DNA of 64,000 bases from Marsupella aquatica (taxonomy: Eukaryota; Plantae; Marchantiophyta): positions 6,774,132 through 6,838,131 of the forward strand of contig OZ316896.1 of assembly GCA_973895155.1 (NCBI GenBank), written 5' to 3'. Every line of letters begins with the position of its first letter. Position 1 is the first letter of the stretch. The notes under the pieces are model-generated. The model was not told the origin of the DNA. It made no database searches and was given only the letters and a program-made list of their open reading frames with translations. Position numbers and translations under genes: made by a program. This document shows, piece after piece, positions 3,701-33,856 of the stretch.

Positions 3701-4345
3701 GTTTACCTACTGTCTAATGCCCCTAGCCTGAAAGTGAAGACTTACAAACGGATGAGAGCATATGGGAATCACTTCCGAGTGAAGGATGGTGACAGTGCCT
3801 ACAGGGTGACGAATGACTGCGGGCTCATCACTGTATTTGAGCAACAGAGCCACAATCACGACAGGGCCTGGATGGAGATGGGATATGTGGGAGAATTAGT
3901 TGACATATGGGCTCTGGACTATGGGGCGGTGTCCAGTCCTGTGATTCTTATGAAAGGTTCATGGGTGCGGCAGGATTGGCTTGGTAACAGGGCTACCATG
4001 AAGAGAGACAACGACGGTTTCTTGCTGGCCAATTTCAGAGGGAAATTGCCCGAATGGTCTGAGCCATTTGTGTTTCCTAGTCAGGTGGAGCAAGCTTTCT
4101 TCCTGGATGTGGAAGACTCCCCAGGTTGGTGTGTAGTGTGTCATAAACAGGCCAGGCAACGCCGGATGGAAGGATCAAACCTTGAGTTTCATTTACACTC
4201 TCATAGTGCCTTTGATCGTCGGCGTTCAGACCAAGTGCCTGTAGTTCATGATAGCGGGGACTTCATTCCTGTGACAAGGGTAGATGCATTTGCTGAAGGA
4301 GGCGAATTCAGAGATGCAGATGCCAACAGTGTGCCTGTGCCATGA
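755..4345 (+). CDS. CACTA transposase (TnpD/Tnp2: Transposase_21, DUF4218, DUF4216), join(755..2437,2561..3462,3580..4345), 1116 aa
   Basis: Motifs MRCPCAIC, IHACPDGH, LRHFPLIPRLQRMF, EPRNVRLGLSLDGVNPF, HNIDVMHIEKN, MKSHDYH, FPPAFFDVMTHL, WLYPLERYM, EPFVFPSQVEQ; GT-AG introns 2438-2560 and 3463-3579 restore one uninterrupted frame. Confidence 0.93.
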
Positions 4346-4501: not shown

Positions 4502-7500
4502 ATGGAACAGAGTGACACAGAGATGTGTGAGTATGAAAGGAAAGCTATGGAACAACGAGCATACGTGAAAGCCAAAATCGCAGAACTGGATCTGGAAAAG
4601 GATGTGGCTGAATTGTAAGGGAACGATTCTCAACTACACCCCTCCGCTGAGTTTGTGTGACATGAATAGTTCAATGTGGCACTGAAATTGTGACTGTATT
4701 CTCATATTGGAATGTCGCAGAGCCACAGCATTTTCAAAGAAACAAAAGGAGTACGCAAGAAGGGTGACCAGCACTATCTCTGGGCCTGTGCGTCGGAGTG
4801 ACAGGTTGAGCAAGAAGGTCGTACCTACAATGGCAGAATGTGGAGATGACATTGATGCTGCACAGGTGGGTGCAGACACTAGACAAGAAGATGCAGATGA
4901 TGAGTATTTTCCAGAGGAAATGGATGAGGATGGGGGTTATGAAGATGAATACATTGCAGAGCAGCCCCAAAAGAAACATGTAAGTAGTTTTCCCAACAAG
5001 GTTTTGAGTTAAAAACTCTTGTTTAGAGGTTTCATATGTTCAGTACTACACATATGTACCTTGCTTAGTTCCTGACATTGTAGTTGGTGATGTGATGCAG
5101 CGTCCTGCCAGTTCTGTTTTGCCTTCGAAGCCTGTGCATGCACCATACCAGCAGGGGGGGCTGACCTCTGATCAAGGTTGGCGAGGTGGTAGTAGTGGTA
5201 GATCCCAGGCTGGTGCCCAATACTATGGCAGGGGGCAAGCTCTAGGTTATGCCCGTGGTAGAGGCAGAGCAGGTCCAAACCCACAATCTCGTGGGTATGG
5301 ACGTCCACCTCAACCGTGGGGATGTGAGTATATATCTATATGCCAGTTCTTTGTGAAGGCATGGCACTCCTGAATTTCAGACTGCATATCAATTTTTGAC
5401 ATTGTTTGGGATGTATTGGATTCAGACAACATGAAATTCTGTCCACCTGCCATTGCATGCAGATTCTGCCCAACCTGATTGGGCAAATGCTAGTAATGAT
5501 CAGTTCCAATGTCCACAAGGACAGACATGGGTTGAACCAGGTTGGGAGGATGGTGGTGGGTCGTGGAATGAACAAGGTTGGGAAGGTGGTGAAGGTAATT
5601 GGCAGGGATATCAAAATTCAGTACCTACAAACGCTGGAAGAGGAGCAGGTAATGTCTGATCTTGTCAGCAATGGAAGAACTCATTATATGTGGAGTCCAT
5701 TCACGTGGGGGGGACTCTGCACATGTATAATGATAGAAAATGTATGTGTGCAGGTTGGACAGTCGAACCATCGACTCAAGTATTCACTAATGCCCCTATG
5801 CAGATGCAGCACGGAAGGGGGACAGGTATGTCGGTGAATGTTCAGTTGTTTTCCTACAGTTTGTACTTAGTTTTCAGTACATATGTTTGCACACACATAC
5901 CTAGAAAGTGACATCATCCGGCCCCTGTACTAGGCTGGACAGGTGGTCCAGGGTCGCAACAATTTCAGAGTGCAGTCCCTGCACAGGCATCTACAGGCAG
6001 AGCTACAGGTATGTATGTTTGAAGAATTTTTCTTGAAGTGAAGCATTGAATGTTGCCGTCATCCATTCTGCTATATGTAGTTCTCAAGCATGAATGGCAT
6101 TGTATTTTCCCAGGTGGCTTCAGAACCCCAGGTAGGGTGAATGAAGGGGTGGCCAATACAACGCCCAGTACTACCGAGAGCAGTGCACGAGGGGAGGTGA
6201 CAAAGAAAGGGAACGTAAAGTTGAATGAGAGACAATGGGTGGATGCTGAGTGTCCTCGCAAGAACCGATGGCATGCTGATTTGAAAGCTGAAGTATTGCG
6301 TTGGTTAGATGTGAGTGTTATTAATTTTAAAAAACAGCATCCAAAAGATTGGAAGACTGTATGTGAAAATGTTGCTGCCAAATGGAATTATGTGGGCAGT
6401 GATGATGGCGTGGACATAGGTTGCCTAGAGAGTACAGCAGGTAAAATTATCAAGCAAGAGAGGTGGAGAATGCATAAGGCTTGGAAGGAAGGTGGGGAGA
6501 AGCCAGATATGCCTCCACCAGCCAGTTGTGATGATAAAGTGTGGGCAAGGTTAGTAGCTTATTTTGTAACAGATGCTTCAAAAAAGAAGAGTTCACAGAT
6601 GACCGAGGCCAGGTTGAGTGTTCAGAACCCTAATCTGACAGGAAGGACCGGCACTGCACCGACAGCTAAACGTTTGGTAAGAATGAATGGCCTAGCTATG
6701 TAATTTATGCTACACTATGTACTATTTTTTAGTGTACTGTCCCTACATGTAAACTTTGTTTTTTAGTGTACGTTCCCTGAATATTGATCGATAACTTGTG
6801 TTTGCCATGCATGTGCAGAAAGCCCAATTGGGGCAAAGCCCTTCAAAAGAAGAGTTGAGGGCTGAAATTGTGAACACCCGGGCTCAAGAGGGTGCATCTG
6901 AATCCTCCAAGCATGTAAGTTATATGAGTTCTGATTGGTAATTGAATGACCTGCGTTGAATTTCAGGTGTACACTGTATATAACATTGATTGTGCATATA
7001 TTGCCCAACATTTCATATGGAGTGATTGAACCTATACCCCTGTGTCATGTAGGGAGGTGGATCTTCACTTACAGAGATAAGTGGTCGTTTGAAGGCTGTC
7101 GAAACATGTCTTCCAGAGATCAATGAACGTTTGAATTCATTGACTGACTTGTTCCATGTGAACTTCAAGACATTAATGGAAGCTGTTGTGTCGGTGAGAG
7201 ATAAAATTGATTCCAATTCTGCAGGAGTTCCACCATCACCACTTGAGGTGGCAAAGTCGATGCACTCTTCTGGCATGCCAACGACATGTAGGCTTGAAGG
7301 TAAGGCCTTTACAACTGTGTGGGATATGATTATTAAATGTATAGTTTGAATTGACATTGTTTGTTGAATGTGTTATTTTCAGTAACATATATTGTGGTTG
7401 TTGTGTCCATAGAGAATAAGACAGGTGCTACAGAGAAGAAGTATGAGAACCTGGCAAATACTCGCTGTAATTTAGAGGCAACAAAGTTGCAGTCTGTACA

Positions 7501-8209
7501 AGCAACTTGTTTGACAGAGGGCAGTCAACCATGTTTGGATGAGGATGACATTGGCAAGGGAGTGGATGATATCAATGTTGGGGCAAATGAGGATATCAGC
7601 AAGCATGACAATGATACCATTGAGCCAGATTCATGCTATGTAGATCTTGACTCCATTGCAGAGATAAATGATTTGCAGAATGTATCATTCTCAATGACAG
7701 GTGTGCCTCTTGTTGAGATAAATCCAACCAAAGAGTTAGTTGGTATGACACTCCCAGGTGATGAACCTGCTACTGTGACAGTCCTAACAGAGGAACCTAC
7801 TGAGCCTAGCTTCACTACTGTGAAGAGAGGAAGCATGCGCACACGAAGCAAGTCTGCTGGTGGGAGCAGAGCCACGTCAAAGGTTTCATACAAACCTCCA
7901 AGAACAGTGCTGGCAGAAAGATCTAAGGTGGAAGTGGGGAAAGCACCTAATGCTGAGGGACAAAGTGGCTTGTTAGCTGTTGATGAGAGTGGAACACGAG
8001 TAGGATTTGCCAGAGTGCAGGTTGGTTCCACAACGTTCCATGGCAAGAGGATTCCCCCAGGTTATTCAGTAGTGTTAGTCACATTACTAGTGAAACCTAA
8101 AGCTGTCCTTCCCATTCCAAACACAAATGATGATCCTCCTCAAAAGACACTTGGAGATGCTGCAGGTTCTTTGGTATTATGGCCAAGCAAGTTCATAGAG
8201 GATCCATAA
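4502..8209 (+). CDS. Multi-exon TnpA/Ptta-like second CACTA gene (exon limits approximate)
   Basis: Exon-like ORFs 4502-4615, 4716-4979, 5100-5325, 5460-5648, 6114-6676 (DDKVWARLVAYF...ARLSVQNPNLTGRTG, Transposase_24-like) and 7361-8209 ending HGKRIPPGYSVVLV...LPIP...TLGDAAGSLVLWP, the typical TnpA C-terminus. Confidence 0.75.
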
Positions 8210-8699: not shown

Positions 8700-9064
8700 T
8701 GGTTCTGTTGTGTGACGCGGGCCAGGGTCTCCATTGGTCTCTCCTGTGACACTAAATAGTCACACGCTAGTCGTTGTTGAATGCGGGTAAGTCATGTATG
8801 TGATTTACGATGTGACTCGCTGAAGTCATATTGCAGTCACGTCGAAACAAGGCTAGACTCCACAATAAAGTCACAGATCAGTCACAAATGGGTATCAAGC
8901 AAGTTGCAAAGCCCAGTATCAATAGTGACTTCCATTTTTTGGTCTCAACTTTTGCAACTCCAAGGGTCACAGCGTGGGTCAAGTCACGTTGAGTCACAAT
9001 GAAGTCACATGAGCCAAAATGAGTCATATATTGCGGTCTCAGTTCACCTCGGATTCTTCTAGTG
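8700..9064 (+). repeat. CACTA 3' subterminal repeats and TIR (9054-9064)
   Basis: Dense GTCAC/GAGTCA/TGAC motifs in both orientations; terminal 11 bp ttcttctagtg identical to terminus at 33846-33856. Confidence 0.8.
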
Positions 9065-9979: not shown

Positions 9980-9991
9980 GGTCCCGATCCA

Positions 9992-11430: not shown

Positions 11431-11472
11431 TTCCAATGCTCTGGCAACTTGAGTCGATGGTTTCCAATGCTC

Positions 11473-12760
11473 TGAATACTTGAGTCGATGGTTCGACTGT
11501 CCAACCTGCACACATACATTTTCTACCATTATACATGTGTAGAATCCCCCCACATGAATGGACTCCAGATATAATGAGTTCTTCCATTGCTGACAAGATC
11601 AGACATTACCTGCCCCTCTTCCAGCGTTCGTAGGTACTCTATTTTGAAATCCCTGCCCATTACCTTCACCACCTTCCCAACCTTGTTCATTCCACGACCC
11701 ACCATCATCCTCCCAACCTGGTTCAACCCATGTCTGTCCTTGTGAACATTGAAACTGATCATTACCAGCATTTGCCCAATCAGGTTGGGCAGAATCTGCA
11801 TGCAATGGCAGGTGGACAGAATTTCATGTTGTATGAATCCAATACATCCAAAACAATGTCAAAAATTGATATGCAGTCTGAAATTCTTAAGTGCCATGCC
11901 TTGACAAAAACTGGCATATAGATATATACTCACATCCCCATGGTTGAGGTGGACGTCCATACCCACGAGACTGTGGGTTTGGACCTGCACTGTCTCTACC
12001 ACAGGCATAACCTTGACCTTGCCCTCTGCCATAGTATTGGGCACCAACCTGGGATCTACCACTACTACCACCTTGCCAACTTTGATTAGAGGTCAGCCCC
12101 CCTGCTGGTATGGTGCATGCACAAGCATTGCAGGCAAAACAAACTGACAGGACGCTACATCACATCACCAACTACAATGTCACAAACTAAGCAAGGTACA
12201 TATGTGTAGTACTAAACATATCAAACCTCTAAACAAGAGAGTTTAACTCATAACCTTGTCGGGAAAACTACTTACGTGTTTCTTTTGGGGCTGCTCTGCA
12301 ATGTATTCATCTTCATAATCCCCATCCTCATCCATTTTCTCTGGAAAATACTCATCATCTGCATCTTCTTGTCTAGTGTCTGCACCCACCTGTACAGCAT
12401 CCATGTCATCTCCACATTTTTCCATTGTAGGTACGACCTTCTTGCTTAACCTTTCACTCCAATGCACAGGCCCAGAGATAGTGCTAGTCACCCTCCTTGC
12501 ATACTCTTTTTGTTTCTTTGAAAGTTTTGTGGCTCTGCGACATTCCAATATGAAAATACAGTCATAATTTCAGTGCCACATTGAACTATTCATGTCACAC
12601 AAACTCAGCGGAGGATTGTGGTTGAGAATTGTTCCCTTACAATTCAGCCACATCCTTTTTCAGTCCCAGTTTTGCGATTTTGGCTTTCACGTATGCTCGA
12701 TGTTCCATAGCTTTCCTTTCATACTCACACATCTCTGTGTCACTCTCTTCCATCTAACTG
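11473..12760 (-). pseudogene. 5' exons of TnpA-like gene, copy 2
   Basis: Reverse-complement match to 4495-5786 (e.g. ORF 12243-12548 vs 4707-5012). Confidence 0.85.
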
Positions 12761-12798
12761 GACCACAAAAACATGTCATCTATGGTCACCCTGTATAA

Positions 12799-13415
12799 GT
12801 CAAAGTCAAAGTCAAATTCTAAGCTCCACGACGACCCAATGAGTCAAGGGAGCTGTGGCAAAAAAGCCAAATACAAAGCAAAGAAATGAGTCAAATGCTC
12901 ATGTGAGGATCTCTACATCCTCACTAATAACAAACTAAGGACCTTAAGAGTCACTAATGTGTAATGCTATCACATCATTTCCTATCCACTGCCATGATAT
13001 ACAATCCAAGTTGCTTTGGTGGCAACCTAAATAGATCATGCAGATCAGAAACAAGGATTTGATGTGCTATTTGAACCTCCTCATACCGTCTACATGCTAT
13101 GAATACATGATATTCATTCTCAATGCTGCCACTATCACAAAGTCTACACACCCTATCCTGCCTCCTAATTCCCTTCCATCTACCCTCCTCTACCTCCAAG
13201 TGATGTGAGTTGAGTCTATATCTAGCAATCACTTGTCTCAACCTCATAGAAATGGGAGCTCTAAGATACTCTTGTTCTTCATACAACATCATGGGGTTTA
13301 CATCCCTCATAAAATACTGTAATCTAGGGCTAGGATCACTCCAAAGTTTTCTAATAGCTTTATCACGCAAGAGTGACCAAAGCTATTAGAAAACTTTAGG
13401 GTTTAGGGTTTAGGG
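12799..13415 (-). mobile_element. 5'-truncated LINE (family B, (TTTGAC)n tail, RTEX-like) with telomeric 5' cap
   Basis: Tail (gtcaaa)3 at 12799-12816; ORF2 C-terminus YRLNSHHLEVEEGRW...CRLC...ENEYHVFIAC; TSD (g)tataa; empty site visible in copy 1 at ~4455. Confidence 0.92.
13395..13415 (+). repeat. Interstitial telomeric repeat (TTTAGGG)3
   Basis: Three perfect Arabidopsis-type repeats. Confidence 0.95.
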
Positions 13416-13531
13416 TATAACACAATGCAACCACAATCACCAGGCATCCATCCATATATCTCTGTTGCTTCAGAATTACTTTATTACACATCCTTCCCCT
13501 CACTAATGTCCATGCAAACAATTCACATTAC

Positions 13532-15172
13532 TCATATAACAGGCACATTGTTGGCATTTGCATCTTTGAATTCACCTCCTTCAGCAAATGTCTCTACCCT
13601 TGTCATAGGAATGAAGCCCCTGCTATCATGAACTACAGGCACTCGGTCTGAACACCGATGATCAAAGGCACTATGTGAGTGTAAATGAAACTCAAGGTTT
13701 GATCCTTCCATCCGACATTGCCTGGCCTGTTTATGACACATTACACGCCAACCTGGGGAGTCTTCCACATCCAGGAAGAAAGCTTACTCCACCTGACTGG
13801 GAAACACAAATGGCTCAGACCATTCGGGCAATTTCCCTCTGAAATTGGCCAGCAAGAAACCGTCGTTGTCTCTCTTCATGGTAGCCCTGTTACCAAGCCA
13901 ATCCTGCCGCACCCATGAACCTTTCATAAGAATCACAGGACTGGACACTACCCCATAGTCCAGAGCCCATATGTCAACTAATTCTCCCACATATCCCATC
14001 TCCATCCAGGCCCTGTCGTGATTGTGGCTTTGTTGCTCAAATACAGTGATGAGCTCACAGTCATTTGTCACCCTGTAGGCACTATCACCATCCTTCACTC
14101 AAAAGTGATTTCCATATGTTCTCATCCGTTTGTAAGTCTTCACTTTCAGGCTAGGGGCATTAGACAGTAGGTAAACGTCTGCATCCATGTTTGGGTGGGT
14201 CTCGTGATGCTCTCTAATTTCCACTCTGATCCACTCCATGAAACCTGGAAAGTTGTTCCTGTAGTGGGATGGGCCGCCTTCAATGACTCATACCCCTTGA
14301 ACAAACAACCACACAGCATTAGCTTGGCTAAAATGAACAGGCTGAAGGAGAAAATCACACTGTCACGCACACAACATTTAAGCTCATGAACTGGATTATA
14401 GCACATGTATGCACTCACTGTATCCATTGTTCCATCACCACAGTGTTGTGCAATACAAAGTCATGTGCCAAGTCTCTCATAGTAGATATGGTCAAAATCT
14501 TTGTGGTTGCAGCCCCTTCCAGTACTTCACCTATCACCCTTTCCTCCTCATCAGAATTTCACACCCTGGTCTTCACATGCTCATATTGTGCTATGTATTC
14601 GGTCAGAAATCCCAGAGTCTCGTCTTTGATGTAACCTTTAGCCATGCTTGCTTCAGGTTTGTAATATGTTCTCACGTGACCTTTGAGTAGCTTCATGTAC
14701 CGTTCCAAAGGGTACAACCAACGAGCACTCATAGGCCCAAATTGGTGTAGCTCTTCCACAACATGGACAAGTAGGTGAGTCAAGACATCAAAAAATGCTG
14801 GAGGAAAATAAATCTCCAGGTCACACAACACCTGAGCGACATCTTCTGTCAGTTGTGGGAAGTGGGTTTCATCCCAAACCTTCACACAAATACGACGAAA
14901 CACATCACTAAGTCGCATGATCACATTATGAACGGGCTTCTGCAACAGGCCCCACAGGCATAAAGGCAACACCTGTTGCATCAACATATGGTAGTCATGG
15001 CTTTTCATACTACCAAGCTTTCTAGTCATGATATGTTTCTTGAAAGCATTGCCATAGTTTGAAGGAACCTTCAAAGAACTCAACCTCTGCACAAATAGTT
15101 GCCACTCTGTGTTTATTAGAACATAGGGCGCTTGGTACTTCAAGAGCACATTAGCTTTGTGGGCATGTGGCC
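13532..15172 (-). pseudogene. CACTA transposase copy 2, 3' part
   Basis: ORF pieces 14559-15149, 13784-14098, 13532-13768 match 2712-4345, with stops and frameshifts. Confidence 0.93.
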
Positions 15173-15564
15173 AAAAGCAAGCTAGAGGGGGTATTATTTG
15201 ATGTCACAAATGTCACATTTCAAATACCATAGAGGATGGTACTTGAAATGTACAAGGACCAAAAAGGACCATGGAAGGGCTTAGATGTATCTGAATGGGT
15301 GGCCAAGATTAGACAAGCATTACTGTGTAGCCCAAGAAGTAAAGGTGATGATTTCCTTGGTGTTGCCCTTCACTACCCACAGCCGACATTGTCACTTAAG
15401 GTACTAAGCTTAAGTAGTACTTTCTTGGAATTCAAATACCTCGTAACTCGTGTTGACCCTATGGTTTGAACTCTATGCAAGTTCCCAAGTCCATTGTACA
15501 TGGCGCGTTAGGTCGTGAGTCCTTCTACAAACATCGTTACGTGTCATATACTCGTGGACGCACT

Positions 15565-15825
15565 ACACCTGTAAGTTTTTCTTAATCTTGAGTAAGTTTT
15601 TCTTGAGGGAAACAAGCTGCCCCGACATTGCGATGCAGAAATTTGGTGGTACTCACGGATGCACTATACCAAGTAAGTTTTTCTTGCGAGAAACAAGCCC
15701 AAACATTGCGTATGTTGCAGAAATTTAGTGGTACTCACACACGCACTATACTTGTAAGTTTTTCTTGCAAGAAACAAGCCCAGACATTGAGAGAAACAAG
15801 CGCGGACATCGCGTTGCAGAACTTT
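15565..15825. repeat. Degenerate ~80-90 bp tandem repeat (about 3 copies)
   Basis: gtaagtttttcttg..agaaacaagc...acattg and gcagaaattt.gtggtactcac recur. Confidence 0.75.
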
Positions 15826-16188
15826 TGTGTTACCTTGTCCTTTTCGTGTTCGACATTCACCTTCTTTTGCTCCTGTTTGGAGCTTCAATGTTGCGTTTTG
15901 CGTCGCATTGCCATGCATTGTGGTCTAAGGGATATTAAGGACTGTAAACATCTGACCTCGTAGCGAATGTTCCTTACTCTGCGACAGGAAGCTGCGGCAT
16001 TACTCTACGTTTAGACCTTCATTACTCTGTGGCATTACTCTATGTTTAGGAGAACAAACATTGTAGCTCAAGGGCGGTTGAAGTAGGGTGAATCTCTACC
16101 CTCACACATGATCTCATGGTGTTAACCCAACATCATGAGTAGTGTTTGGGATGAAGCAGCGAAAGCCAAAAGAGACCGACGAAATTTT

Positions 16189-18081
16189 GGTAATGGTAAT
16201 GGTAATGTATTATAAGCTCCGGGACCATGAAAGTCAAAGGAGCTGCCACAAAAAGTAAAGTACAATGCAATCAAAGAAAAGAGCAACCAAAAGAGATTGC
16301 TCAGAAGAGGACAACTATGTCCTCAAAGAAACTATGGACCTAGAGAGCCCTGAAAGATTTTCCAAACCTATTCTCCTTTCCCTATCCACCGCAAAGATAT
16401 ATCTTCCAAGTTGCTGAGGGGGCAGACCAAACAATGCATACAAATCTTTCACCAAGATTTGAGATGCCATCCTAACCCCCTCATAAAACTTGCAAGCAAT
16501 GAATACATGATATTCATTCTCTATACTAGAGCTATCACATAACTGACAAACCCTCTTTTTCCTGTCAATATCCTTCCATCTCCCTTGTTCTACTTCAAGG
16601 TGGTGTGAGCTTAGTCTATACTGAGCAATAAGTTGTCTAAGTTGTACTGAGATAGTGCTAGATAAGTATTCTTGTTCTCGATATTTCTTCATGGGGTTCA
16701 CATCTCTCATGTAGTATTGCTGCCGTGGGCTAGGTTCATGCCAAAGTTTGTGCAAAGCCTTTTGCTCAAGTTTTGCTCTTAGCTTGGTTGGGTGTGTTGG
16801 CCATTCATGTTCAGGAAAATCCCAAGCATGGGCCCACCTGCACACATCTGCATACCACCCTTTAGCTGAAGATGAGCGCAAGGCATGAAAAGGAAATCTG
16901 TTTTCCTCCAACTCTCTTACACGCATGATGTATTTGAGTGTGTGGAAGAGGGCCTCCACCTCCAAAGGAAACAAGCCTGCCTCTGCAAGTGTAAGTGCAT
17001 ATGGGGTTTGTGACTTGATCCCAAGCTCCATCTCAAGAAATAGCTTTTGCAGCCCCTCAATCTGTTGCCACCCAGATTTAGACACACCTGCTCCCCAAAT
17101 TGGTGCTCCATAAAGAATGACTGGTTTCACCAAAGCTCCAAAGAGATGTTTCCTTAACCTCCAAGTGTGTAGACCAGCTTTTTTGCATTTGTTCATGAAT
17201 GCATAAAAAGCTCTGTACCCATTGGCAGCCCTAGATTTTACACATGAGGCCCAACTCAAGTTTTGAGAGAACTCCACCCCAAGGTATTTGTAGGTCCTCA
17301 CAAATTCCACCAGATTCCCTTGGAAGTAGAGCTCTGGATTTTGTGGTGTGCCAATGCCCAAACACTTGGTCTTCTTGAGGTTGACTACCATCCCTGTTGC
17401 TTGACAAAACTCCTCCAAGGCATTGAGATGTCTTTGCAAAGCTTCTTGAGCATGAGCAAGTAGGACCACATCATCTGCAAATATAAGAAGTTGGAGGACA
17501 AACCTACCCAATTGAGTGCCAACTCCACCATGCTCCTCCAAAATGTTGTGTAGCTGATCAATGAAGATGCCAAATAGAGTTGGTGAGAGAGGACAACCTT
17601 GGATCACCCCAAGAGTGCTCCAGATTTCTTCAGAGGTTTCCTTTGAAAGTTTGATGCGCACTTCTTGGTACAATTTAGAAACAGCCAACCTGAGCTCTTC
17701 AGGCACTTCCAACTCCACCATCCTATCCCAAAGCTTGGATCGGGAAACTTTGTCAAAGGCCTTGGAGAAGTCCACAAACAAGCAAAATAATGGTTTATGT
17801 GGAGATTTGGCCTTTTCACACAACACCCTCAAGCAGAGAATGTGATCCATAGTGCTGAATTCTCTCCTAAAACCTGCTTGTGAAGGTGCCCTTTTCATCT
17901 CACTCTCCAACCAAGAGCTTAATCTGGCTTCAAGTAGTCCTCCCAAAACTTTAGCAAAAGTATTGCCTACCATGATGGTTCTGTAGTTGTGCACATCATC
18001 CTTGTTGCCTGCCTTGAAGATAGGCACCACTCTTCTGGTCATCCAAGCTTTAGCTTAGGGTTTAGGGTTTAGGGTTTAGGG
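16189..18081 (-). mobile_element. 5'-truncated LINE (family A, (ATTACC)n tail, RTEX-like) with telomeric 5' cap
   Basis: (ggtaat)3 at 16189-16206, RT ORF, TTTAGGG array at 18055-18081; no TSD seen. Confidence 0.92.
16315..18042 (-). CDS. LINE ORF2 reverse transcriptase and C-terminal CCHC region (5'-truncated)
   Basis: PIFKAG..NYRTI, QAGFR, FVDFSKAFDKV, GVIQGCPLSPTLF, FADD, YKYLG, C-x2-C...EYH...C. Confidence 0.95.
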   Translation of the reverse strand: MTRRVVPIFKAGNKDDVHNYRTIMVGNTFAKVLGGLLEARLSSWLESEMKRAPSQAGFRREFSTMDHILCLRVLCEKAKSPHKPLFCLFVDFSKAFDKVSRSKLWDRMVELEVPEELRLAVSKLYQEVRIKLSKETSEEIWSTLGVIQGCPLSPTLFGIFIDQLHNILEEHGGVGTQLGRFVLQLLIFADDVVLLAHAQEALQRHLNALEEFCQATGMVVNLKKTKCLGIGTPQNPELYFQGNLVEFVRTYKYLGVEFSQNLSWASCVKSRAANGYRAFYAFMNKCKKAGLHTWRLRKHLFGALVKPVILYGAPIWGAGVSKSGWQQIEGLQKLFLEMELGIKSQTPYALTLAEAGLFPLEVEALFHTLKYIMRVRELEENRFPFHALRSSSAKGWYADVCRWAHAWDFPEHEWPTHPTKLRAKLEQKALHKLWHEPSPRQQYYMRDVNPMKKYREQEYLSSTISVQLRQLIAQYRLSSHHLEVEQGRWKDIDRKKRVCQLCDSSSIENEYHVFIACKFYEGVRMASQILVKDLYALFGLPPQQLGRYIFAVDRERRIGLENLSGLSRSIVSLRT

Positions 18082-18091
18082 TAAACCTAAA
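18055..18091 (+). repeat. Interstitial telomeric repeat TTAGGG(TTTAGGG)3 followed by inverted taaacctaaa
   Basis: Seen directly. Confidence 0.92.
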
Positions 18092-18094
18092 GCC

Positions 18095-18393
18095 ATTGCT
18101 TGATTCAGCTCATGCACCAAGTTTGTTAGTAAAGAGGGTCCTCCCCACAAAAGAAGCTCCAAGTTCAGGCCCAACAGATCTTTAGCTTTCCCATGTTGCT
18201 ATCAATACAATCAGACATGGGAAATGCCACAAATGCCTCCATGTCCTAGCCGATGTGAGCATGCTTTATAAATAAAGCGCCGAGGATGGGGGAAGGTTGA
18301 ATGAAAGTTCACAATATGAACCACGACATCTCGAAATGAAGCAGACTGCCCTGCTTCCATGACCTGCTCAACTTCTGTTACAGGAGTCCCCAT
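18095..18393 (-). pseudogene. RPA1 C-terminal (Zn OB-fold)-like remnant
   Basis: VVVHIVNF...RFIYKACSHRLGHGGICG, then after stops AKDLLGLNLELL; resembles the YxAC...C and AExLLG motifs of Rep_fac-A_C. Confidence 0.4.
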
Positions 18394-18429
18394 TCTTCTG
18401 CGTCAACAAGATCCTGCAAAACTACAAGT

Positions 18430-18935
18430 CCAATACTCAAATCAATACTCAAGGATTCCCGATGGATATTCAATGACAAAACCTTGCTTGCACTACCACA
18501 ACATGACACACAATCCTCAAGGGATTACACTACTACTCAAAGGTATTGAACTAATACTCGCAGGAATTTGAAACAATACTCAAACGCGTAACTTACATAA
18601 TACTCAAAGGTATTTACATAATACTACAAGGTATTTACATAATACTACACGGTATTGTGACAATACTACAAGGTATTGTGACAATACTACAAGGTATTAT
18701 GATAATAATACACGTTATTGTGATAATACTCAATGGTATTATGATAATACTCAATGGTATTGAGATAAAACTCAACGGTATTGAGATAATAGTACTTGAG
18801 GTATTATGAAAATACCAGGAATTGACTAACACCTGAAACTCTTACAGTAATACCTTATTGTATTAGACTAATACCCGAAGGTACTAAACTAATACTTAGT
18901 ATTAGAGTAACAATCACAGGTACCAGGTAAATACT
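18430..18935. repeat. Degenerate ~21-22 bp minisatellite (AATACT(A)CAAGGTATT core)
   Basis: About 20 units such as aatactacaaggtattgtgac; core aatac...gtatt is self-complementary. Confidence 0.88.
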
Positions 18936-19228
18936 CTGTGACATGAAAGCACAGCCAGAGAAATTACCTGAGTCTGGTAGTGCATGTAAAGTGAGTATTC
19001 AAATCTACATAATATGCATGTATGAAGTGAGTGAACCCTAAACCAAATAAACCTGTGACAATACATAGAAATTGACTGGTACAAAGGATGAGCAATAGGA
19101 GAGTAAGAAAATTTACCATCAATGCATCCACATTGGGTATCTAGACAGACATCTAGGGTTCATGAATGCTCAGAGGCAGACGACAATGTCAACATAGTAG
19201 TCCTATTTAAATTACCCAGCCTCACCTA

Positions 19229-21900
19229 TTACAATTTCCTAGCTGATCCACGACCTCTTCCTCGTCCTTTGACAGGTGGTTTAACCTTTTCAACTGACTT
19301 TAAGGCAACATTACCACCCTTGTCATGAGCAGGATCCAATCCTAGACTGATAGCAGCACCCCTTAACTTCCCCTTAGCTTGAGAGGAGCTTGTGCCATTC
19401 TTCTCCTCGGCCTTTCACTTTTTGCTACTCCCCTTACAAGACTCAGAGCCAGGCTCAGAGTCATTAGAGACATTCTCCACCTGAGTGACCGAACCAGGTT
19501 CTGGAGCAGCACCCTTTTCGACCTTCACAATTGAGAGATTCACCTCACCCTTGGACTCCGGGGCTGAAGTCTGCATTTGAACTAGAGTAGGAACTGACTT
19601 GATGTCAACTTTTGAGACCCTCAACAACTCATGGTGTACATGTGCAGCTTTACCAACAGCCTCATGATATTCGATAGACTTCTTCACACTTTCCTGCAGC
19701 GCAAAACAATATCCCACAATTAGCAATTGACCAATATCCCCGCTAATACCAATGGTACGACAAAGCCAGATCATACTATGCCAACAACTCGAGTGACCAG
19801 GTTTAGTGATATACCTTTGAATATAACTTGGTCACTTTCTTATGCTTCAAGGCTTGATTCTCCCTCCTTCCCTTTAAATTCAAGGCATTCTTGCAATACA
19901 GATCACTAAGGCTCTTTTGAAAAGAGATAGATTGTTCTTCCAAACCCCAATCATCTGCTAGCTTCACTACATCTGGATGGTCCACTCGGGATGAACCCCA
20001 GCACTTCAGCCAGGCTGGATGAAACACTTCAGCACAGGCTAAACACTTAGGAGGTTTACTGTCACCGTTTCGAAGCAACGGGAACAAACAACTTGGATGA
20101 TAGCAATGTCCACATGATGTGGGAATCCAATTGTTACAAAAGAAGCCAAGAGAGCAAACAGGGCATTCGCTTATGGGAAAATAAGCCTCCTCTGTCTGCG
20201 CAGGACAAATGATACTAATAGGGCATACATAAATTGCATGAGAGGTATTCAAGTGCTCCTTTAGTCTTGCGCACTCTAGATTGAGAGCATCATAGGACTT
20301 TGTCAATTTGTATGCTGTATGATCTAGCTTGTGCAAGGTCTGTTTCCCATACTCCTGTTCCTCATCCAACTTATTCAACTCTTTCATAAGAACTTGAGCA
20401 TCTGCGACTACATCAATGCGCTTCTGCTTTGAAGCAGCCAAGTTTGCTTGCAGTATATTTGTTTCATTGCAACACGAGACATATTTTTCTCGCAACCCTT
20501 TGCAAAGTGCCTGCACAAGTCCCGGCCAACACAACAGGATTGTTATAAGCAACTGAAAATCACATTCAACAAAGATAATATGAAAACAAATGTAGCTTTA
20601 AACAAAATGAGATCATTTACCTCGTCTTCAGAATGCTCTTCGTCAGGATCTTGCAGCAGTTCAAGATCCTCAGATACTTGAGCTTGCTCTTTGACCTGAG
20701 CATGGATGCGTCGCTGTACGTCGTGGATGATATTAGTGAGTTCATTCTTTTGCACTTTCAACCTTGACAATGTCGTTTGAATTGAGTTGATTCGATCAGT
20801 AGCCTCATTCTGAGCTGCTGTGAATTGAATGGCATCTTGTGTAGACTTCTGCATTTCAGGGCCAAGCTCTGCAAGACTAGCCTCCACTACCTCCAACATT
20901 GTTTCAAGAAGTGTATTCTTCTGGTGTGGAACTGGCGTGCCAGTAGTGACTCCAGTGCAAAGTTTTTTGGTTTGAGCTTCTGGAAAACCTATGAAACTAT
21001 TTTCTGGTGACATTTCATGATTCGGACCACCTACCTGAGAAAGGGACTCACCTTGCTCTTGCTCATTTGCCTCTAGTCCTAACACCGTACCTGGAGATAT
21101 TGTATCTTGCTGCAATTGGTTCATGTTTTGCGGGAAGTTTTGACTACTCGAATGAGGACCCGAGGCTTCGGGTGACTTGAGCTCTAGGTTTGCCGGTTTC
21201 TCCTCCCCAGGTGATTCACAATGTGCTCCACTCGCAACGGACTGTATTCTATTGAAGAGGTCTAGAGGAGGGATATACTTTGTCTCAATCCTCTTCCACG
21301 GTGGCGAGTTTCTATCGATTGGAGACTTCCTTACAAACCTCAACCGAAGCTGCCCTCTATGCTTGTCTGCACCACAAGCTGCCCAATTCACAGGTTTTTT
21401 TAAGATCCGCTCATAGTACAAACCTTTGGCAACCTCCACAGTGTATGGTTGAAACTTTCCGATTCCGTCCAGCGCACAGGTAAGCATGGCGATGTCGTCG
21501 GCAGGAATCCCCTTAACGCCATCCTTCTTGTAGCCGTTCTTCCCAGACTTGTTCCCAAAATACTCCTCCAACACCTCAGCGGACACGTCTTCACTTGTGA
21601 GCTACTTCGGAATGCTTCCCACATTGGGCATTGTGGAAATGATCGATGTCCTTCACAAACTCATCAACTGTCCACTCTTCTGATGAGGGGACCTTTACAA
21701 GACTCTCACCGTGTGATTTCGGTGGTAGCTTGTGACTCGTGGACTTTCCAGGCATTTCAGAAGACATACCTGTTGTGTAGCTTGAGTTCTCCCAGCTGCT
21801 CGCTCCAAGCGTTGGCAACAAACTATTTGGGCGCAAACCTGCGCTATGCGACTCCGCCCGAGTCCCTTGAAAGCACGTTACTCCAGAGTCTGACTCGTCC
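19229..21900 (-). CDS. Multi-exon, probably decayed gene: TE-type N-terminal domain, coiled coil, RING-H2 finger, basic tail
   Basis: CPVC-x13-CGHCYHPSC-x14-CLAC in ORF 19803-20552; coiled coil in 20543-21586; donor gtaaat at ~20601. Confidence 0.65.
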
Positions 21901-22679
21901 CTTCCAGTGCCTTGCGCCTGAATTACAACACAAGAATGTGAGTTCAATGTCATCTTATTTGAAAAGATTGAATGTGTGCCTAATGCGTGGCCTAGATCAT
22001 AGAAGACATTCAATATTAAACAAGTGGGGAAGAAAACAATCAGAGCAACTTTCCGAATGTCCTCAACTTTCAAAATTGTAGCTCAGGTCCTGTAACTCTT
22101 CAATCTCCACAACGCAAACGAGAATGCAAAAAGTTCCAGAGATTCAAATGCTTGCAGCCCTCGACTAAAAGCAACTTCCTGCGCCAAAATGCAATGTCAT
22201 TCCCTCCCGCATTCCCTCCCCTGCTACCTAATCAAGGATCACAATGTTGCGGTCTTCTCCAACTGGCACATTGCGCAACATTCAAACTGGAGTACGCATC
22301 GTGAAAGTTGATTCAACGCGACAAAAAGGAAATAGAAAGGAAGTGCGCACTTTGCGCCCAGGTCTCCCTTGATTGCAGGCAATCCTACGGTTTGGATCAT
22401 CCTTCTAGCAGGAAGGGTCAAGATCCAACAATGCTACTCCCTCAACCACCACCATTGATCTTCATTGCCACCACGGCACGGTCCGGATTTGCTGACCTTT
22501 CTAATTTTGAAATGATAGGAGGTTACGGTAGTAATGTCTTTTCGGCCCTTCCTCCCTCCAACGTGATTGTACTTGCAACAACCTCCTCCCTCATCATTAC
22601 ATGACTTGTAGTACTAACTATACTATGAGCTTTGTTGTAGGGGTGGTATTAGGAGGGGTATTATTTTGCTCAAATTAGA

Positions 22680-24615
22680 CCCCTCTGTTCAAGATCCAAT
22701 CTCACAGAACCAGTGTCTTTCTCTCCACACAAGAATTTGAGTAGACTCTCACAAATATTCTTCTCAATGTGCATTACATCAATGTTATGTTTGCTTGGCT
22801 CAAACTCCTGCACAGTTGCAATGCAAGAGCATCAGTAAATGCCTCTAGTTTAGTCTCTCTCTTCAAAATGAATGCACATGCTCTGAACCAAAACATGTAT
22901 CCCAATTAGCATCAACTCCAAGAGGCTTACCCTCCAATACTTGAGCTCCAAGTCAAATATGCTCTGTCTTTTTACAGCATATCGCTTTATTGGATCACTC
23001 ACTCCATCTTCCCTGCCCCCTCATTTGATATAGTCATCCCTCAGTGCTCCCCACTACCTGATCTCCTCTTTGGTCACTCGTGCCGAGGGTCCACGTTGCT
23101 CAATTTCATTGCCAAAGTGTGCAATCAGTGCCTGTCTTTCTTTGTAAGGGTGATCTGCCTTCAGAAAACGACGATGGCCCATGTATATGACTTTCTGTAG
23201 GGCTCTGGAGTACTCACTGGTGACATTGCGCCCACAGATAGTACAAGCACAATATCATTTTGTTGTTTGGCCTGATATCATCCCATGGGCTGGGTAGTCA
23301 GCTATAGTCAGAATGACGATGGCTCTAAGGATGAATGGGTTTAACTTCCCAAGCCTCTGTAAGACATCATATGTGAGAACTCCTTCCTCCCAAAGTTTTC
23401 TCAATTCCTCCACTAGGGGAGCCAGAAACACATCTATGTTGGCAGATACAGCACTATTTGGCCCTTGTATTAATAGGACCATCAAAACAAAAAATCATTT
23501 TGTAGTCATCCAAGGAGGGAGGTTATATAATTCAAAATCGTTACAGGCCAGCACAAAAATTTGTTGTTCTTGTCTCCAAATGGGTTTACCCCATCCAATG
23601 ACAGCCCAAGTCTGACATTCCTTGGCTCAGCAGCAAATTCGGGATACATCTCATCTATGAGTTTCCACTGCCTTGAATCTGCAGAATGTTGTTGTAGCCC
23701 ATCAACACTTTTCTTGTCAGTTGCCCAAGTCATCATCTCTGAGATGACACGGCTTTTGAACATCCGCTGAAGTCTGGGAATGAGTGGAAAATGACAAAGT
23801 ACCTTGGCGGGAACCATAGACTTTCCTGAGTTCCGATACCTGTGCTTCCCACACTTAGGGCATGTCAACGATTCTGCATACTCCTTTCTAAAAAGAACAT
23901 GCCCATCAGGACAGGCATGGATGGAATAAAGTTCAATCCAAGATTAGATATGCATCTTTTTTCCTCGTACATGTTCTTGGGAAAAATATTACCATCTGGT
24001 AGCACAGTTGTTCGCAAGAATGCCAACAACTCAAAAACTAAAACGTTGGGGACATTGTGGTTGTCGCAAATGTTCAGGAACATGATGACAAATTCCAGTT
24101 TAGAACATTTGCTACCGGGATACAAAGACTTCCTGCCTTCCTGTATTTGCAGGGGAGAGCCAAACATCCCATCATGCCTAGGGGTTTCCTGCCCTATTTC
24201 AAACTCATCAAGAGGCTCTTTGACTGGGGGCACACTTGCATCTGCAACCGGTATCCTCTTCGTTGTCCAGCCCATCGTGAAATGCATCCAAGTCTTGGAA
24301 GATGTCTCTCACTATGTCTTCCACATGAATTCCTTCGTCACGTGGTGTTGCCTGAGCACCATCCCGTTAGAAGGCTGACAACCCACAGAGACCAGCTACA
24401 ACATTTTCAAATGCACTAGACAGAACCTTACTTGCCCGTCTTGCAGCATTGGCAGCATCAAATTCTAACCTCCACTCCTCGTCGGAAGAATCTTCCTCTG
24501 TAGGATCATTCCAAACTCAATGTTGTGGATCTCTTCCATGAACTGCGATATGCCGCCAAACCTCATTCAGACCCCTGGTACGGGATCCTTGGCAGATTGC
24601 ACAAGGACATCTCAT
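22680..24615 (-). pseudogene. CACTA transposase copy 2, 5' part
   Basis: Reverse complement of 755-2684 with multiple stops and frameshifts. Confidence 0.93.
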
Positions 24616-25054
24616 CTTGCTGGCTCCTGAAAATCTGGTTCGTAACCTTTCATGCTGCCAAAGCTCATTATCATGGCATAAAATCCTTGTGGGATGATGC
24701 AAAGGCAGTGTCTGTGCCCTGGGCTGGGTTTGGGGAGGGTGGTGACCAGGGTGCATTGTAACAGGCCGAAAGCTCTGCAATCATGGACAACAGTGAACAA
24801 GGATGCCTACTGGTGGTATTTGTGTTCCATCCCTGACTGTATCTGCTAAAAGAGTTAACATAACATGTAATAAATGTACACAAACCCTAAACCACCCCAA
24901 AAGAAAAAAAACAGGTTCTTGAGTAGTGTACCTATTGTCAAGTGAATGACACAAAATTCCTAAATGTTGGAGGGTGTCACCACCTCCTCCGCTGTCCTCA
25001 AATGTACCGCCTCTGCATGTACACCCCATGACCATATCAGAGTCCAATCATGTA

Positions 25055-25162: not shown

Positions 25163-25274
25163 TCATGTATAGTCATAGGCACAGGTGTGAGAGCCGTATC
25201 AGATATCTCACCTTATTACCAGGTGAGATATGGGTATCAACCCTATTCTCGATGCCACTCAGACCTCAGGTACT

Positions 25275-25555
25275 TACCATGGGGGTCTTGCATCCGTGCC
25301 TACAAGCAGTGGATGCAATGCCCTCCACTGGGGGCAAGTTGCTACCAAGTCCCTCCACCGGGTATTAATTTGTCTATATTTGCAGATATCTTGTGCGCAA
25401 GACACCACAAGAACCCTCGGCCAGACATGTGTAAAGAACTATATCATCTGCCAAATCAGGCAACAAGGAACCACCTACAACATCGTGCTTGTCTAACTCA
25501 TCTGTTGAAAAGTAGATGTCCTCTTCGGACTGTGCATCCTCATTCACCATAGATT
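25275..25555 (-). pseudogene. F-box cargo gene fragment (1-bp frameshift)
   Basis: SLLPDLADDIVL then, shifting frame, THVWPRVLVVSCAQDICKYRQINTRWRDLVATCPQW. Confidence 0.65.
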
Positions 25556-25900
25556 CAGCGTCTCTTGCATCCTCGGGCGGTGCCAAGAAATGTTTTAGCA
25601 CCAACCCATGCAGGAGAGTCCAAATTGTGGCCAGCCATATGACAACCCGGAGGAGGAGCCGTAATAGCGCCTATTGATCTAGGAAAGGCAACATACCCAC
25701 CAAAGTCTGCCGCCAAGATTTGACCCCACCCAGTACGTTTACAATGACACCCCCAGGCAGCACGAAACAACAATCCGCCAACAGTCAAATAAGTCCAACT
25801 GCCACCAACCATAACAAGGTACATTAGTTCAAAGATCACATTTATTTCAATGATGTGATTTATACAAAAAAACTTGTGTCCAAACTGATGCTACTACTCC

Positions 25901-26781
25901 TCACTCTGATTCAAAATTGCTAATGACCCATTCCTGACTTGTTGTCTCATAGTCCTCTCTGTAAGGATCCTGACCCTTCCGTGGCCAGGCCTCAAAAAGA
26001 TCATCTAGTCCATTGGGTTTTGACGCTTCCCAACTGCTACTGATTCCACAAGCCAAGCATATGAAACCACAAACACATTATGGGACATGACATAAAAGCG
26101 AATGTCTCCCTTCCCAAATTTGCGGCAGGCTTTGGGATATGACTTAGTAATGACATGAGTGGTGTCCTCTATTATATTCTCCTCCACTGTCCCACCTAGG
26201 TCAAGCACTGTGGACTTGTACACTTTGCACTTAACCTCTCCAATTCCCGCCTCCACAAATACCATGCTCAGCCCTTTCAAAATGGGGGTTGGTTGCTTTG
26301 TCTCCTCAGCCAACATACTCTTCAGCCTTCTTGAGCTCTGTCCTTTGTTGAGTACAGGTCCATATTGGACATCAGCAAGCCGTGCCTTTGCTTCCCAGAC
26401 TTCTTGTTCAGCCCAAGCTGATGCAGTAGCTTCTTCATCCTCCCACAGTTTGTATTGCTCAATATCTTGTACAATCTGATGTGCTATGGAATCTGTGATC
26501 CAAGAGGGCTCAACTACTTTTAGGCCTTGCTCAATAATTGTAGAATTCATGTAGGACCATGACCACTTCTTTATCACTGATAGCCATGTCCCTGCAACAA
26601 CATGTGTAGTCTCTGGAGTGATGTCCTGAACTACAGTGCCATGGAGCTCAAAGAATTGTTTCTGTACAGTTGGCCAATGCACTTTGGTCAACCCATGCTG
26701 GCCATGGACCAAAATGACTCTGACCCCTGTAAACACTGCTGGGTGGTCACACTTTCTACGTTTCCCAGGTTCCATGTACAC
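25901..26781 (-). pseudogene. Tandem BRCT-domain cargo gene (premature stop from 2-bp insertion at ~26005)
   Basis: Two repeats: VFTGVRVILV...LHGTVVQDITPETTHVVA...VVEPSWITDSI and ILKGLSMVFV...LGGTVEENIIEDTTHVIT...VVSYAWLVESV. Confidence 0.88.
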
Positions 26782-27367: not shown

Positions 27368-28030
27368 TCACAGCCAAGATATGTGATCTCTCACAGGAGT
27401 GCGCAAGGTAGGATCAATGGTATGGCAATGACAATAAAATATCCATCGATCAACACCATGTGTAGAGTGATCATAGATTTCTCTGTCACAAGCATAACCC
27501 TCTGCTTGACGATCTTTCAAGCAATGATAGTGCCACATAGTGGGAAACCTAGCACAGTGGACTATGTCAGTCCAGTAGTCATCATCATGCTCACCACATG
27601 CCTTGCACTTATGAAGTGGGCAAGCTGTGGCATGATCAGGCAAACACTCAAAACAGAAAAATCTCACACAAAAATAGTTTGGACATTTCCTAACATTTGC
27701 TGCAGCATCAACAGAGCCCTCATAGGACCCCAACTTCTCACACTGTGCACACTTAGCCTGCTTCTCCAAACAATCAGTGCACGGATTCTCCTTGGTGTGT
27801 TGACGGGAGGCCCACCCCTGGACAGTTGTTTTCTACAGCAAGGTCAGACTTCAGGTTGAGGTGGAAATGCCTCATGCAAGGGCCTTCACAGATGACCAGG
27901 CCCCCACCATCATCACAAATGACACAACAATGAGCTGCCTTCTGGAAAATCTGACTTGCGGAGAAGTTAGTAACATCTGCCCCAAGTACACCAGTGTTTC
28001 TCACCTATGTCACGTTTTTTTGCTTGAATT
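27368..28030 (-). pseudogene. EDM2-like (NSD-type) PHD finger cluster cargo gene
   Basis: CVICDDGGGLVICEGPCMRHFH; CAQCEKLGS...CPLHKCKAC...CARFPTMWHYHCL...IFYCHCHTIDPTLRTPVRDHI; broken near 27775. Confidence 0.85.
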
Positions 28031-28741
28031 TTAGGGCGTGCCATGCCTGCACATGAGATAGACTCCACAATTTAGCAGACTGCACAGAAAGTAAAATTTA
28101 GCATGCAAGGTACAAAGGCTTTGCTACTGCAATGAATTGGAATGGTCACACAAGGATGGAGAGCAAATATACTTTTGGTATGTTGAGCCAACACACAAAA
28201 CTGATCCCCTAGTACAATTGCTCCACCAACACCTCAATTTTAATTGTGGCTACGATTCACCAAAGGAGATCTGCAATAACATTTCATGCATTTGAATCAC
28301 ATACAATAGTCGTGACATGTAAAATAGGCATTCTTCGAAGAGGATTGGTATGAAGCAGTGTCATAAGGGTTGAAATTTATACATCCTATTTAAATAGGCT
28401 ATGATAGTGGCTGAGACAAATAAGTCAGGCATAAATCACATTTTTCAGGTTGTCACATGACCCATTAATTCATTGAACGTTGCAATGTTCACCAGGTTAA
28501 AGCAATCATGAAAACAATCTTTCAATAAAGACTTTTAAGTGAGTTTGCTAGTCTCTTAAATTAGGATATTTTGCTTAATGCAGGCATAATAGGATAAGTT
28601 ATGTACTGTTGACCCTAAACCCTGGACCCAAAATTGCTCATACATCAAAATTTTAAGTAAATATCCTCTGTGTTGAAGTCATAGTGTTAAGCTATAGGTC
28701 AATGGTCTCTGGTCTGTGCACGTGGTGTGACAAGTGGTCCT

Positions 28742-29191
28742 CTAGAGCATGTGATCCAAACATGTGTAGACACCAAAGTCACCAGTGGTGAGGTCTGGGA
28801 GGGCAGGACAAGTGACATCACCAGGCACCCTATAGGATGGCGAGTGGTTCCAGATGATACATTGTGCTCTGTGAAAATATCGACATCCAAGAGAATGGTC
28901 ATCCAACTCTGGGCCAGAAGCTCTACAGGCTTGACAGTCATATTGGCAATTGTGCACACACCCTTGGCACCTAATTTGTGGCAAGTCATGTACAAGAGAC
29001 ACAAATACCAAGGATGTGGGGAAGGGTATTGAAGCAAGTAGAGGTTGACTGTAGTTGTTCCTGGCAACAACAGGGTACTCAATGTACCATGCAAACTAGG
29101 CTGGAAGGATCCCAAGTCTGACATACTCAAGGCGCAACATCTTTGCCTTGTGTGCAAGTCGTACATGTTCAGCGTTGCGGGTCCTCACCAT
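28742..29191 (-). pseudogene. Small Cys/His-rich cargo ORF (one internal TAG)
   Basis: Manual translation MVRTRNAEHVR...PA*FAWY...RCQGCVHNCQYDCQAC...HSLGC. Confidence 0.35.
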
Positions 29192-33599: not shown

Positions 33600-33856
33600 T
33601 AAGGGTTCAAATGTAGTGGTGTCATAAGTTGTACTCTAATGTAGAGTCACTTGTATAACTTCACGCTAATTGCCTTAACTGAGTTATAGTTGCAACTTAC
33701 CTAAAAGTTGTAAACATGACTCGGCAAAACTTCACCAAAACTCAGTCAAGAAGGTGTGACTAACATGACACCAACAACCTTGGAGTCGCTATTTCATGAA
33801 GGTCTTGGACAAGTCATTTATGGGAGGGTCTCAAAATGGGTGGATTTCTTCTAGTG
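33600..33856 (-). repeat. CACTA 5' subterminal region and TIR of copy 2
   Basis: tggatttcttctagtg at 33841-33856; AGTCA/TGAC motifs upstream. Confidence 0.8.

Follow-up and report, generated by a model that had tools for sequence, protein, structure and literature searches.

A CACTA (En/Spm) transposon of the liverwort Marsupella aquatica carries a stand-alone gene for a triple-PHD module of EDM2 type, and sequence comparison indicates that this cargo is an old, selected capture and not recent Pack-CACTA debris. The window, as the whole analysed stretch of 64,000 nucleotides on contig OZ316896.1 is called here, contains a decayed copy of the gene. The host element is a CACTA transposon, as identified by its terminal inverted repeats (TIRs), TnpD transposase gene, TnpA-like gene and subterminal repeats (table 1).

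Table 1. Features of the two CACTA copies and of the cassette upstream of TnpD
Feature	Position in window	Strand	Description
CACTA copy 1	1-9064	+	left edge falls within BRCT ORF
TnpD transposase, copy 1	590..4345	+	Transpos_assoc, Transposase_21, DUF4218, DUF4216 (Pfam)
TnpA-like exons, copy 1	6050..8209	+	Transposase_24 match on 6050-6700
3′ TIR, copy 1	9054..9064	+	CACTAGAAGAA
TnpD and downstream part, copy 2	11473..25022	-	94-95% identical to copy 1 345-5786
F-box-like remnant	25374..25670	-	motif LLPDLADDIVL
ORF-B, twin-BRCT gene	25901..26775	-	~290 codons; Pfam BRCT E 5.8e-14, two stretches
ORF-A, EDM2-type triple-PHD gene	27368..28044	-	~226 codons, stand-alone, intronless, broken here
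ORF-0	28742..29191	-	~150 codons, Cys-rich, internal stop 29098-29096
5′ TIR, copy 2	33846..33856	-	CACTAGAAGAA

The CACTA element and its cassette

Two copies of one CACTA family are located in the window in opposite orientation, and their overlap is 94-97% identical. Each copy has only one terminus in the window, and the CACTA-type TIRs are therefore described using one end per copy: the 5′ TIR of copy 2 and the 3′ TIR of copy 1 match in 11 of 11 positions and share a 7-mer at equal offset. The exact 11-mer occurs at only these two places in the window, and since six matches are found at one mismatch against 2.0 expected, only the exact pair is counted. The 465 bp just before the 3′ TIR of copy 1 contain 12 GTCAC/GTGAC subterminal repeats, and weak GTCA/TGAC repeats are present inside copy 2, starting at approximately 33500. 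In TnpD of copy 1, Transposase_21 is matched with an E of 2e-70 and the remaining Pfam domains with 5e-28, 2e-4 and 1e-4; the Transposase_24 (Ptta/En/Spm) match in the TnpA-like exons has an E of 1.5e-4, which is under its cut-off. TnpD of copy 2 is broken by insertions at 15199-22679 and 12799-13414, and the element is truncated at 11473.

Read from its 5′ TIR, copy 2 consists of approximately 4.6 kb without long ORFs, followed by ORF-0, the PHD gene, the twin-BRCT gene, the F-box-like remnant and TnpD, the four ORFs upstream of TnpD forming a cassette. An earlier note on this DNA, made from the letters alone, had placed the PHD ORF between the 5′ TIR and the transposase on the same strand, which agrees with the TIR ending at 33856 and with the strand shared with TnpD. 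The element resembles plant CACTA/En-Spm transposons (TnpD plus TnpA) in its CACTA TIRs, subterminal repeats, TnpD domains and TnpA-like exons, but differs from them in the additional four-ORF cassette.

The PHD gene of copy 2 is a pseudogene with two frameshifts, a stop and a lost Cys, the lesions being 2-nt losses near 28010 and 27783, a stop at 28007-28005 and a Cys to Phe change at 27546. The frame at 27832-27368 (minus strand) terminates in YCHCHTIDPTLRTPVRDHISWL and a stop codon, and the first finger sits in a different frame, at 28004-27789. Pfam recognizes PHD-1st_NSD (E 3.2e-6, passing its cut-off), after which PHD_NSD and PHDvar_NSD match weakly, yet in the correct order. Arabidopsis EDM2 (P0070) aligns by tblastn to 27926-27849 and 27781-27374 (E 2e-16), and the intact relative P0050 (226 aa) maps to 28004-27789 and 27781-27371, being 82% and 72% identical to the two pieces. 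As only 7 nt are left for three codons between the P0050 matches, there is a 2-nt deletion and no intron at this place, which bears out the earlier description of the gene as apparently intronless; the Cys/His pattern and the EDM2-like terminal motif are also present, as judged by the frames, Pfam and tblastn. A gene does lie at 27368..28030, where the note had an ORF, but its start is the ATG at 28044 and not 28030. The PHD cargo is likewise real, but this copy of it is broken, and the note was silent on the twin-BRCT ORF and on two more ORFs of the cassette.

Contigs from five public runs (coded as four organisms) were placed on the PHD and cassette region. The numbers placed on 2.7 kb (965, 2366, 155 and 36) and their divergence, most being 90-99% alike, show that many divergent copies of the PHD region exist; summed contig depth was used neither for copy number nor for ranking of genes. 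The base of the stop at 28007 differs from the window in 362/362 of the depth in run X1, 12529/12709 in X2 and 94/117 in X5, and is outside the cover in X7, and the whole depth in X1, X2 and X5 has the Cys at 27546. Two-nucleotide insertions at 27782/27784 and 28010 are present in other contigs. Most or all of the covering contigs in X1 and X5 are free of the stop, the Cys loss and the 2-nt losses; in X2 the stop and the Cys are restored, and the two indels are seen in part of the depth only. The lesions are thus private to the window copy, and other copies lack them. Thirteen in-frame differences (40 of 264 rows), comprising nine missense, one stop and three silent changes, suggest a profile expected of a decaying copy.

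The neighbours of the PHD gene are less easily classified. ORF-0, which has the pattern C-x2-C-x3-C-x3-C-x2-C and is under many contigs in 4/4 runs, gave no Pfam match at E<=5 and no PDB match under E 0.16. ORF-B contains two extra bases at 26004 in copy 2, and the frame is uninterrupted in copy 1, where its 3′ end recurs at 1-348 (BRCT ORF 1-237, plus strand). Its repeats resemble an internal duplication with a linker of approximately 50 residues. In phosphopeptide-binding tandem BRCTs of the BRCA1/MDC1 class, Ser-Gly and Lys of repeat 1 form the phosphate pocket; the match of ORF-B to the BRCA1 BRCT has an E of 0.003, and the pairwise alignment, which is weak and uses a single decayed copy, has His and Ser at the places of this Ser and Lys. 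K1702 is described as the pocket Lys of BRCA1 (PMC3156602). The single-sequence fold prediction of ORF-B reached a pLDDT of 39. That PHD and BRCT are exons of one protein is considered improbable, because the relatives share the stop of the PHD gene and ORF-B has its own ATG. The fourth ORF has no Pfam match at E<=5, and its motif is one that we take to be F-box-like. Copy 1 and many other copies lack a 714-bp segment containing it; the corresponding joint 25018-25733 is found in 3/4 runs, has short microhomology and is accompanied by further overlapping deletions in X2, X5 and X6.

The contigs also bear on the question of whether the PHD gene, with or without ORF-0, is placed here incidentally, as a separate mobile cassette or nested element, or whether the whole relatives are host genes. 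Contig cover is far thinner over 29365-33667, from the cassette to the 5′ TIR, than over the cassette, and no single run contig links PHD to TnpD or to a TIR, the link consisting elsewhere of overlapping contigs from different runs. Among the distant relatives (approximately 40% identity), the metagenomic member L001 is frameshifted and has no neighbouring TE gene, its contig of 1495 bp being too short to show a transposon context; the only other metagenomic match, L002, was rejected as a member, since it is a protein of 2925 aa from a different eukaryote in which the finger matches are scattered. In red algae, accessory cassettes are reported to move between TE families (10.1101/2025.02.11.637652). 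Against incidental placement, contigs bridge the spacer and the PHD end (X1, 27304-27450), BRCT and the spacer (X5, 26766-27314), and BRCT and the TnpD 5′ region (X6, 1381 nt, the F-box-like segment being skipped much as in copy 1), and BRCT is joined to TnpD in copy 1 as well. Of 18 clusters of short relatives that were checked, none corresponds to an annotated gene in a named organism, an absence from annotated proteomes that probably reflects repeat masking, and in a weak check of the 25 longest inverted repeats no second terminal repeat around the cassette was noticed. Incidental placement is therefore considered improbable. The flank beyond 33856 is also under many contigs, so contig cover cannot mark the end of the element.

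Several other elements are located in the window. The 5′ part of a LINE (9065-11472, minus strand), with 181-bp tandem UTR repeats, ORF1 and endonuclease, breaks off precisely at the 3′ TIR of copy 1; copy 1 is therefore inserted in this LINE, which in turn abuts copy 2. The insertion of copy 2 at 12799-13414 contains a LINE-like fragment ending in TTTAGGG telomere-type repeats, and its 7.5-kb insertion contains, at 19415-22082 (minus strand), ORFs with a RING-like Cys pattern and coiled coils and without a clear Pfam match. In a retroelement at 34298-37272 (minus strand), the RT and RNase H ORFs are immediately preceded by an ORF for a C5 cytosine DNA methylase (36235-37272; Pfam DNA_methylase E 6e-8), and the element resembles the methyltransferase-bearing retrotransposons that occur in charophyte algae and dinoflagellates. 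A 1.08-kb inverted duplication (41883-42958 and 45925-47000, 99% identical) repeats part of a long ORF downstream of an integrase. The tandem array at 47028-64000, with a 5067-bp unit that is 99.97% identical and a gag ORF per unit, reflects either very recent tandem amplification or an artefact of assembly.

Relationship to EDM2

The module is of the EDM2 type, since the family profile scores 99-155 bits with 31 EDM2-like proteins and 48-52 bits with NSD2/3; the EDM2 affinity proposed from the motif alone thus stands up in direct comparison with both groups. Aligned to EDM2 216-437, the profile has an HHalign probability of 99.7, and P0050 is 30% identical to Arabidopsis EDM2 225-432 (E 8e-27). 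The three atypical PHD fingers have EDM2 spacing and all zinc ligands align, with one His to Cys swap, and the C-terminal YCxxH...TPxRDH motif is present. NSD2 and NSD3 share the same three Pfam finger models and are the best PDB sequence matches of the profiles (E 6e-13), whereas phmmer of the broken PHD piece against PDB found no match; the NSD alignments end ahead of the EDM2-type tail, and the NSD module is embedded in a large SET methyltransferase. No solved plant structure of the EDM2 module was found in the PDB search. The protein is not a full EDM2 orthologue: it has 226 aa as compared with 1297 aa in EDM2, lacks the RFD and the C-terminal methyltransferase-like region, is encoded by a transposon and belongs to its own clade. 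It also differs from EDM2 in the loss of the acidic run ahead of finger 1 and in His316 being replaced by Cys.

Two trees were used to place the family. In a mixture-model tree of 52 rows (quick search; broken, partial and duplicate rows left out), one long branch splits the 20 stand-alone members from 32 host proteins with SH-aLRT 100, and the attachment is not resolved. An LG+G4 tree, run to completion on 30 rows selected out of 67 and rooted on green algae, unites the stand-alone members in one clade (100/100), which is sister to five liverwort EDM2-like proteins at 94/88, short of the star threshold, and together with them falls in a bryophyte group (86/70). The stand-alone clade is therefore tentatively regarded as sister to the liverwort EDM2-like proteins, with long-branch attraction as a possible cause of this position.

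The liverwort proteins also give the highest host scores on the family profile (Calypogeia CAM6087769, 155 bits; Riccia KAL3685775, 149 bits; Marchantia PTQ48678, 135 bits). Like the transposon protein, EDM2-like proteins of liverworts and mosses, Marchantia PTQ28154 and Sphagnum KAH9531908 included, end at the PHD module, but they are annotated as host genes (280-768 aa) and have long N-terminal parts and, ahead of finger 1, an acidic stretch. Five of six bryophyte proteins end 7-50 residues past the last motif, and P0027, which was missed by the pattern, likewise ends there. The host proteins ending at the module are P0021 (Marchantia PTQ28154), P0009, P0020, P0027, P0037 and P0084, one of which has 280 aa. 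As such proteins already end at the PHD module, capture would need only the loss of an N-terminal part, and we infer a single capture from a bryophyte-type EDM2 paralogue of this shape.

Selection on the stand-alone family

A full HMMER search with the 154-aa PHD piece gave 45 matches at E<=0.001. Short ORFs without names make up nine of the ten best matches; the other 36 of the 45 are EDM2-like. The RFD domain is present in 14 of these 36 host matches and in P0070, and the 12 of the 36 that were traced by name are the Arabidopsis EDM2 cluster, a fern, Mesotaenium, Sphagnum, five liverwort proteins and three green algae. Further short members, including the whole P0050, came from the profile search. 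No relative was found in the virus and prokaryote collections, and a word-index search, which is weak evidence, found no longer (fused) form of the PHD piece or of the BRCT ORF.

The 32 short relatives comprise 23 whole proteins (187-304 aa) and nine broken or partial ones, the latter being what TE copies would lead one to expect. The ORF is therefore neither confined to this copy nor disrupted in all copies; the earlier note had named absence from other copies, or disruption in all of them together with dN/dS near 1, as grounds for abandoning its reading. An alignment of 20 whole members, whose median identity is 40%, retains 25 Cys/His columns in 19-20 of the sequences. The stand-alone members come from protein databases, which favour open frames; the invariant zinc ligands are not explained by this bias. 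The relatives begin at MARP-like ends and stop within a few residues of the last motif, the ORF from MARP ending three residues past it.

A neutral passenger, that is, an EDM2 fragment captured as in Pack-CACTA elements and amplified without function, would agree with the decay of the window copy, in which the changes listed above accumulate neutrally. However, the zinc ligands are invariant, and the MARP start and the position of the stop are conserved at 40% identity, which goes beyond drift, and the family sits on a long stem branch apart from all 32 host sequences. The 30% identity to EDM2 and the deep clade of its own also set the cargo apart from Pack-CACTA captures, and we regard a neutral passenger as extremely improbable.

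The conserved residues allow some prediction of the ligand. In AIRE-PHD1, a reader of the H3K4me0 type, the reported H3 contacts are the backbone at G306 and L308, D312 for R2 and D297 for K4 (PMC2261226). In an alignment to AIRE-PHD1, the equivalents of G306 and L308 are kept in 20/20 family members and that of D312 in 19/20. The D297 position is His in 15/20 and Ser in EDM2, and thus this position alone does not decide. In the numbering of the family, conservation at the finger 1 contact positions (G47/G48, L50, D54 and W88) equals that in host EDM2. Three kinds of change stand beside this conservation. First, acidic residues before finger 1 amount to 0.9 per 10 in the family and 4.3 per 10 in host EDM2s (20 host proteins matched, 10/30 missing the pattern), and an invariant Gln (20/20) and a His (15/20) stand where the acidic run was lost; second, finger 2 has His316 replaced by Cys (19/20) and a shorter loop; third, Gln35, His39, His194 and Trp172 are newly conserved, and the N-terminus is basic. 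The AlphaFold model of P0050 is of middling quality (pLDDT 67, pTM 0.62), and its Foldseek and VIA comparisons gave generic PHD matches (best E 3e-4, best Z 3.3) that are uninformative on the ligand. Finger 1 is predicted still to bind the H3 N-terminal tail, with a preference that has probably changed; H3-tail binding is plausible in this family, and recognition of the same mark as in EDM2 is not assured.

The same changes would suit a protein whose job is not on histones at all, either in binding protein, DNA or RNA or, jointly with the BRCT and F-box-like genes, in a ubiquitin/repair cassette that manipulates the host. The basic N-terminus, the lost acidic run, the His316 to Cys change, the short finger-2 loop and the newly conserved residues could all be read in this way, and cross-brace fingers of a transposase, that of piggyBac, can reportedly bind DNA. 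As finger 1 keeps its H3-contact positions to the same degree as host EDM2, and the F-box-like ORF is without Pfam support and often deleted, a non-histone job is thought quite unlikely.

Possible roles and wider context

EDM2 is reported to bind AIPP1, and together with ASI1/AIPP1 it acts on poly(A) site choice. It is reported to bind H3K9me2 and to promote full-length transcripts at heterochromatic introns (PMC7529245), and to repress the DNA transposon Mu1 while favouring COPIA4 (PMC3632883). TnpA is reported to activate Arabidopsis Spm elements while H3K9me persists (bioRxiv 10.64898/2026.08.24.746577), and a reader-only EDM2 module would fit such activation with retained H3K9me. With these parallels in mind, the PHD protein may be a non-catalytic chromatin adaptor or decoy that aids CACTA transcription under host silencing, a role to which we would give somewhat less than an even chance. 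Having neither a DNA-binding nor a catalytic domain, it would act via other proteins or nucleosomes. On the one hand, it could compete with host EDM2-like proteins for marked nucleosomes or partners; on the other hand, TnpA could bring it to the element as an adaptor. Against this role, EDM2 also promotes some TEs (COPIA4), and a decoy could thus harm the element. Reading the same mark or recruiting ASI1/AIPP1 cannot simply be assumed for a protein in which the RFD, the methyltransferase-like part and the acidic run are missing, and the recruitment in particular is made doubtful by the absence of the first two. A broader proposal, which we put forward only as a doubtful one, is that an ancient CACTA lineage of non-seed plants turned the captured EDM2 module into a reader-only anti-silencing protein, set in a four-gene cassette with BRCT and F-box-like partners, for transcription through, or aiming at, H3K9-methylated chromatin.

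Instead of aiding transcription, the PHD protein, together with the BRCT protein, could tether the TnpA/TnpD transpososome to nucleosomes in one chromatin state and steer insertions to repeat-rich chromatin. Chromodomains do such tethering for some Gypsy integrases. Both copies lie within a LINE/LTR nest, copy 1 interrupting LINE ORF2, finger 1 retains the positions that contact the H3 backbone and R2, and the BRCT pair of the cassette would suit a function at DNA breaks. A target bias is, however, beyond the reach of one window, and repeats are in any case where old insertions persist; the reader has an ORF of its own and is not fused to the transposase, and the BRCT pair departs from BRCA1 at the phosphopeptide-binding Ser and Lys. 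Such targeting is accordingly considered unlikely, and aid to transcription as an adaptor or decoy is the reading that we prefer.

Chromatin-directed accessory genes on DNA transposons are known already, from VANC and from Plavaka PAG2/3, and what appears to be new is an EDM2-like PHD cargo on a CACTA element. VANC of VANDAL elements is a sequence-specific anti-silencing factor, and fungal transposons carry TET/JBP. For the CACTA-related Plavaka elements of red algae, PAG1-3 are described as SET, adenine methylase and 2OG oxygenase (10.1101/2025.02.11.637652). Like these DNA transposons, the present element keeps a chromatin-directed accessory gene, but VANC, PAG1-3 and TET/JBP are DNA binders or enzymes (writers and erasers), whereas the PHD cargo is a predicted reader-only module from a host heterochromatin pathway. 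The earlier note knew of no such description for CACTAs, and the literature search likewise found no CACTA with PHD or EDM2-like cargo, although figures, bioRxiv supplements or Repbase may list such a domain. A survey of 962 Spm-encoded proteins uses none of the words 'PHD', 'BRCT' and 'zinc' in its main text; 'PHD' is absent from the main text of PMC13547354, PMC13317346, PMC10714607 and the Spm and Bostrychia preprints, and occurs in PMC10241880 only in a reference.

If true, a selected reader-only copy of the EDM2 PHD module would mean that a host heterochromatin reader has been turned against the host, by a route other than those of VANC, TnpA, SET and TET/JBP. It would bear on the question of how TnpA-activated Spm elements get transcribed while H3K9me stays in place. 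The 226-aa protein would also be a natural minimal version of the EDM2 module, suited to peptide arrays and crystallography.
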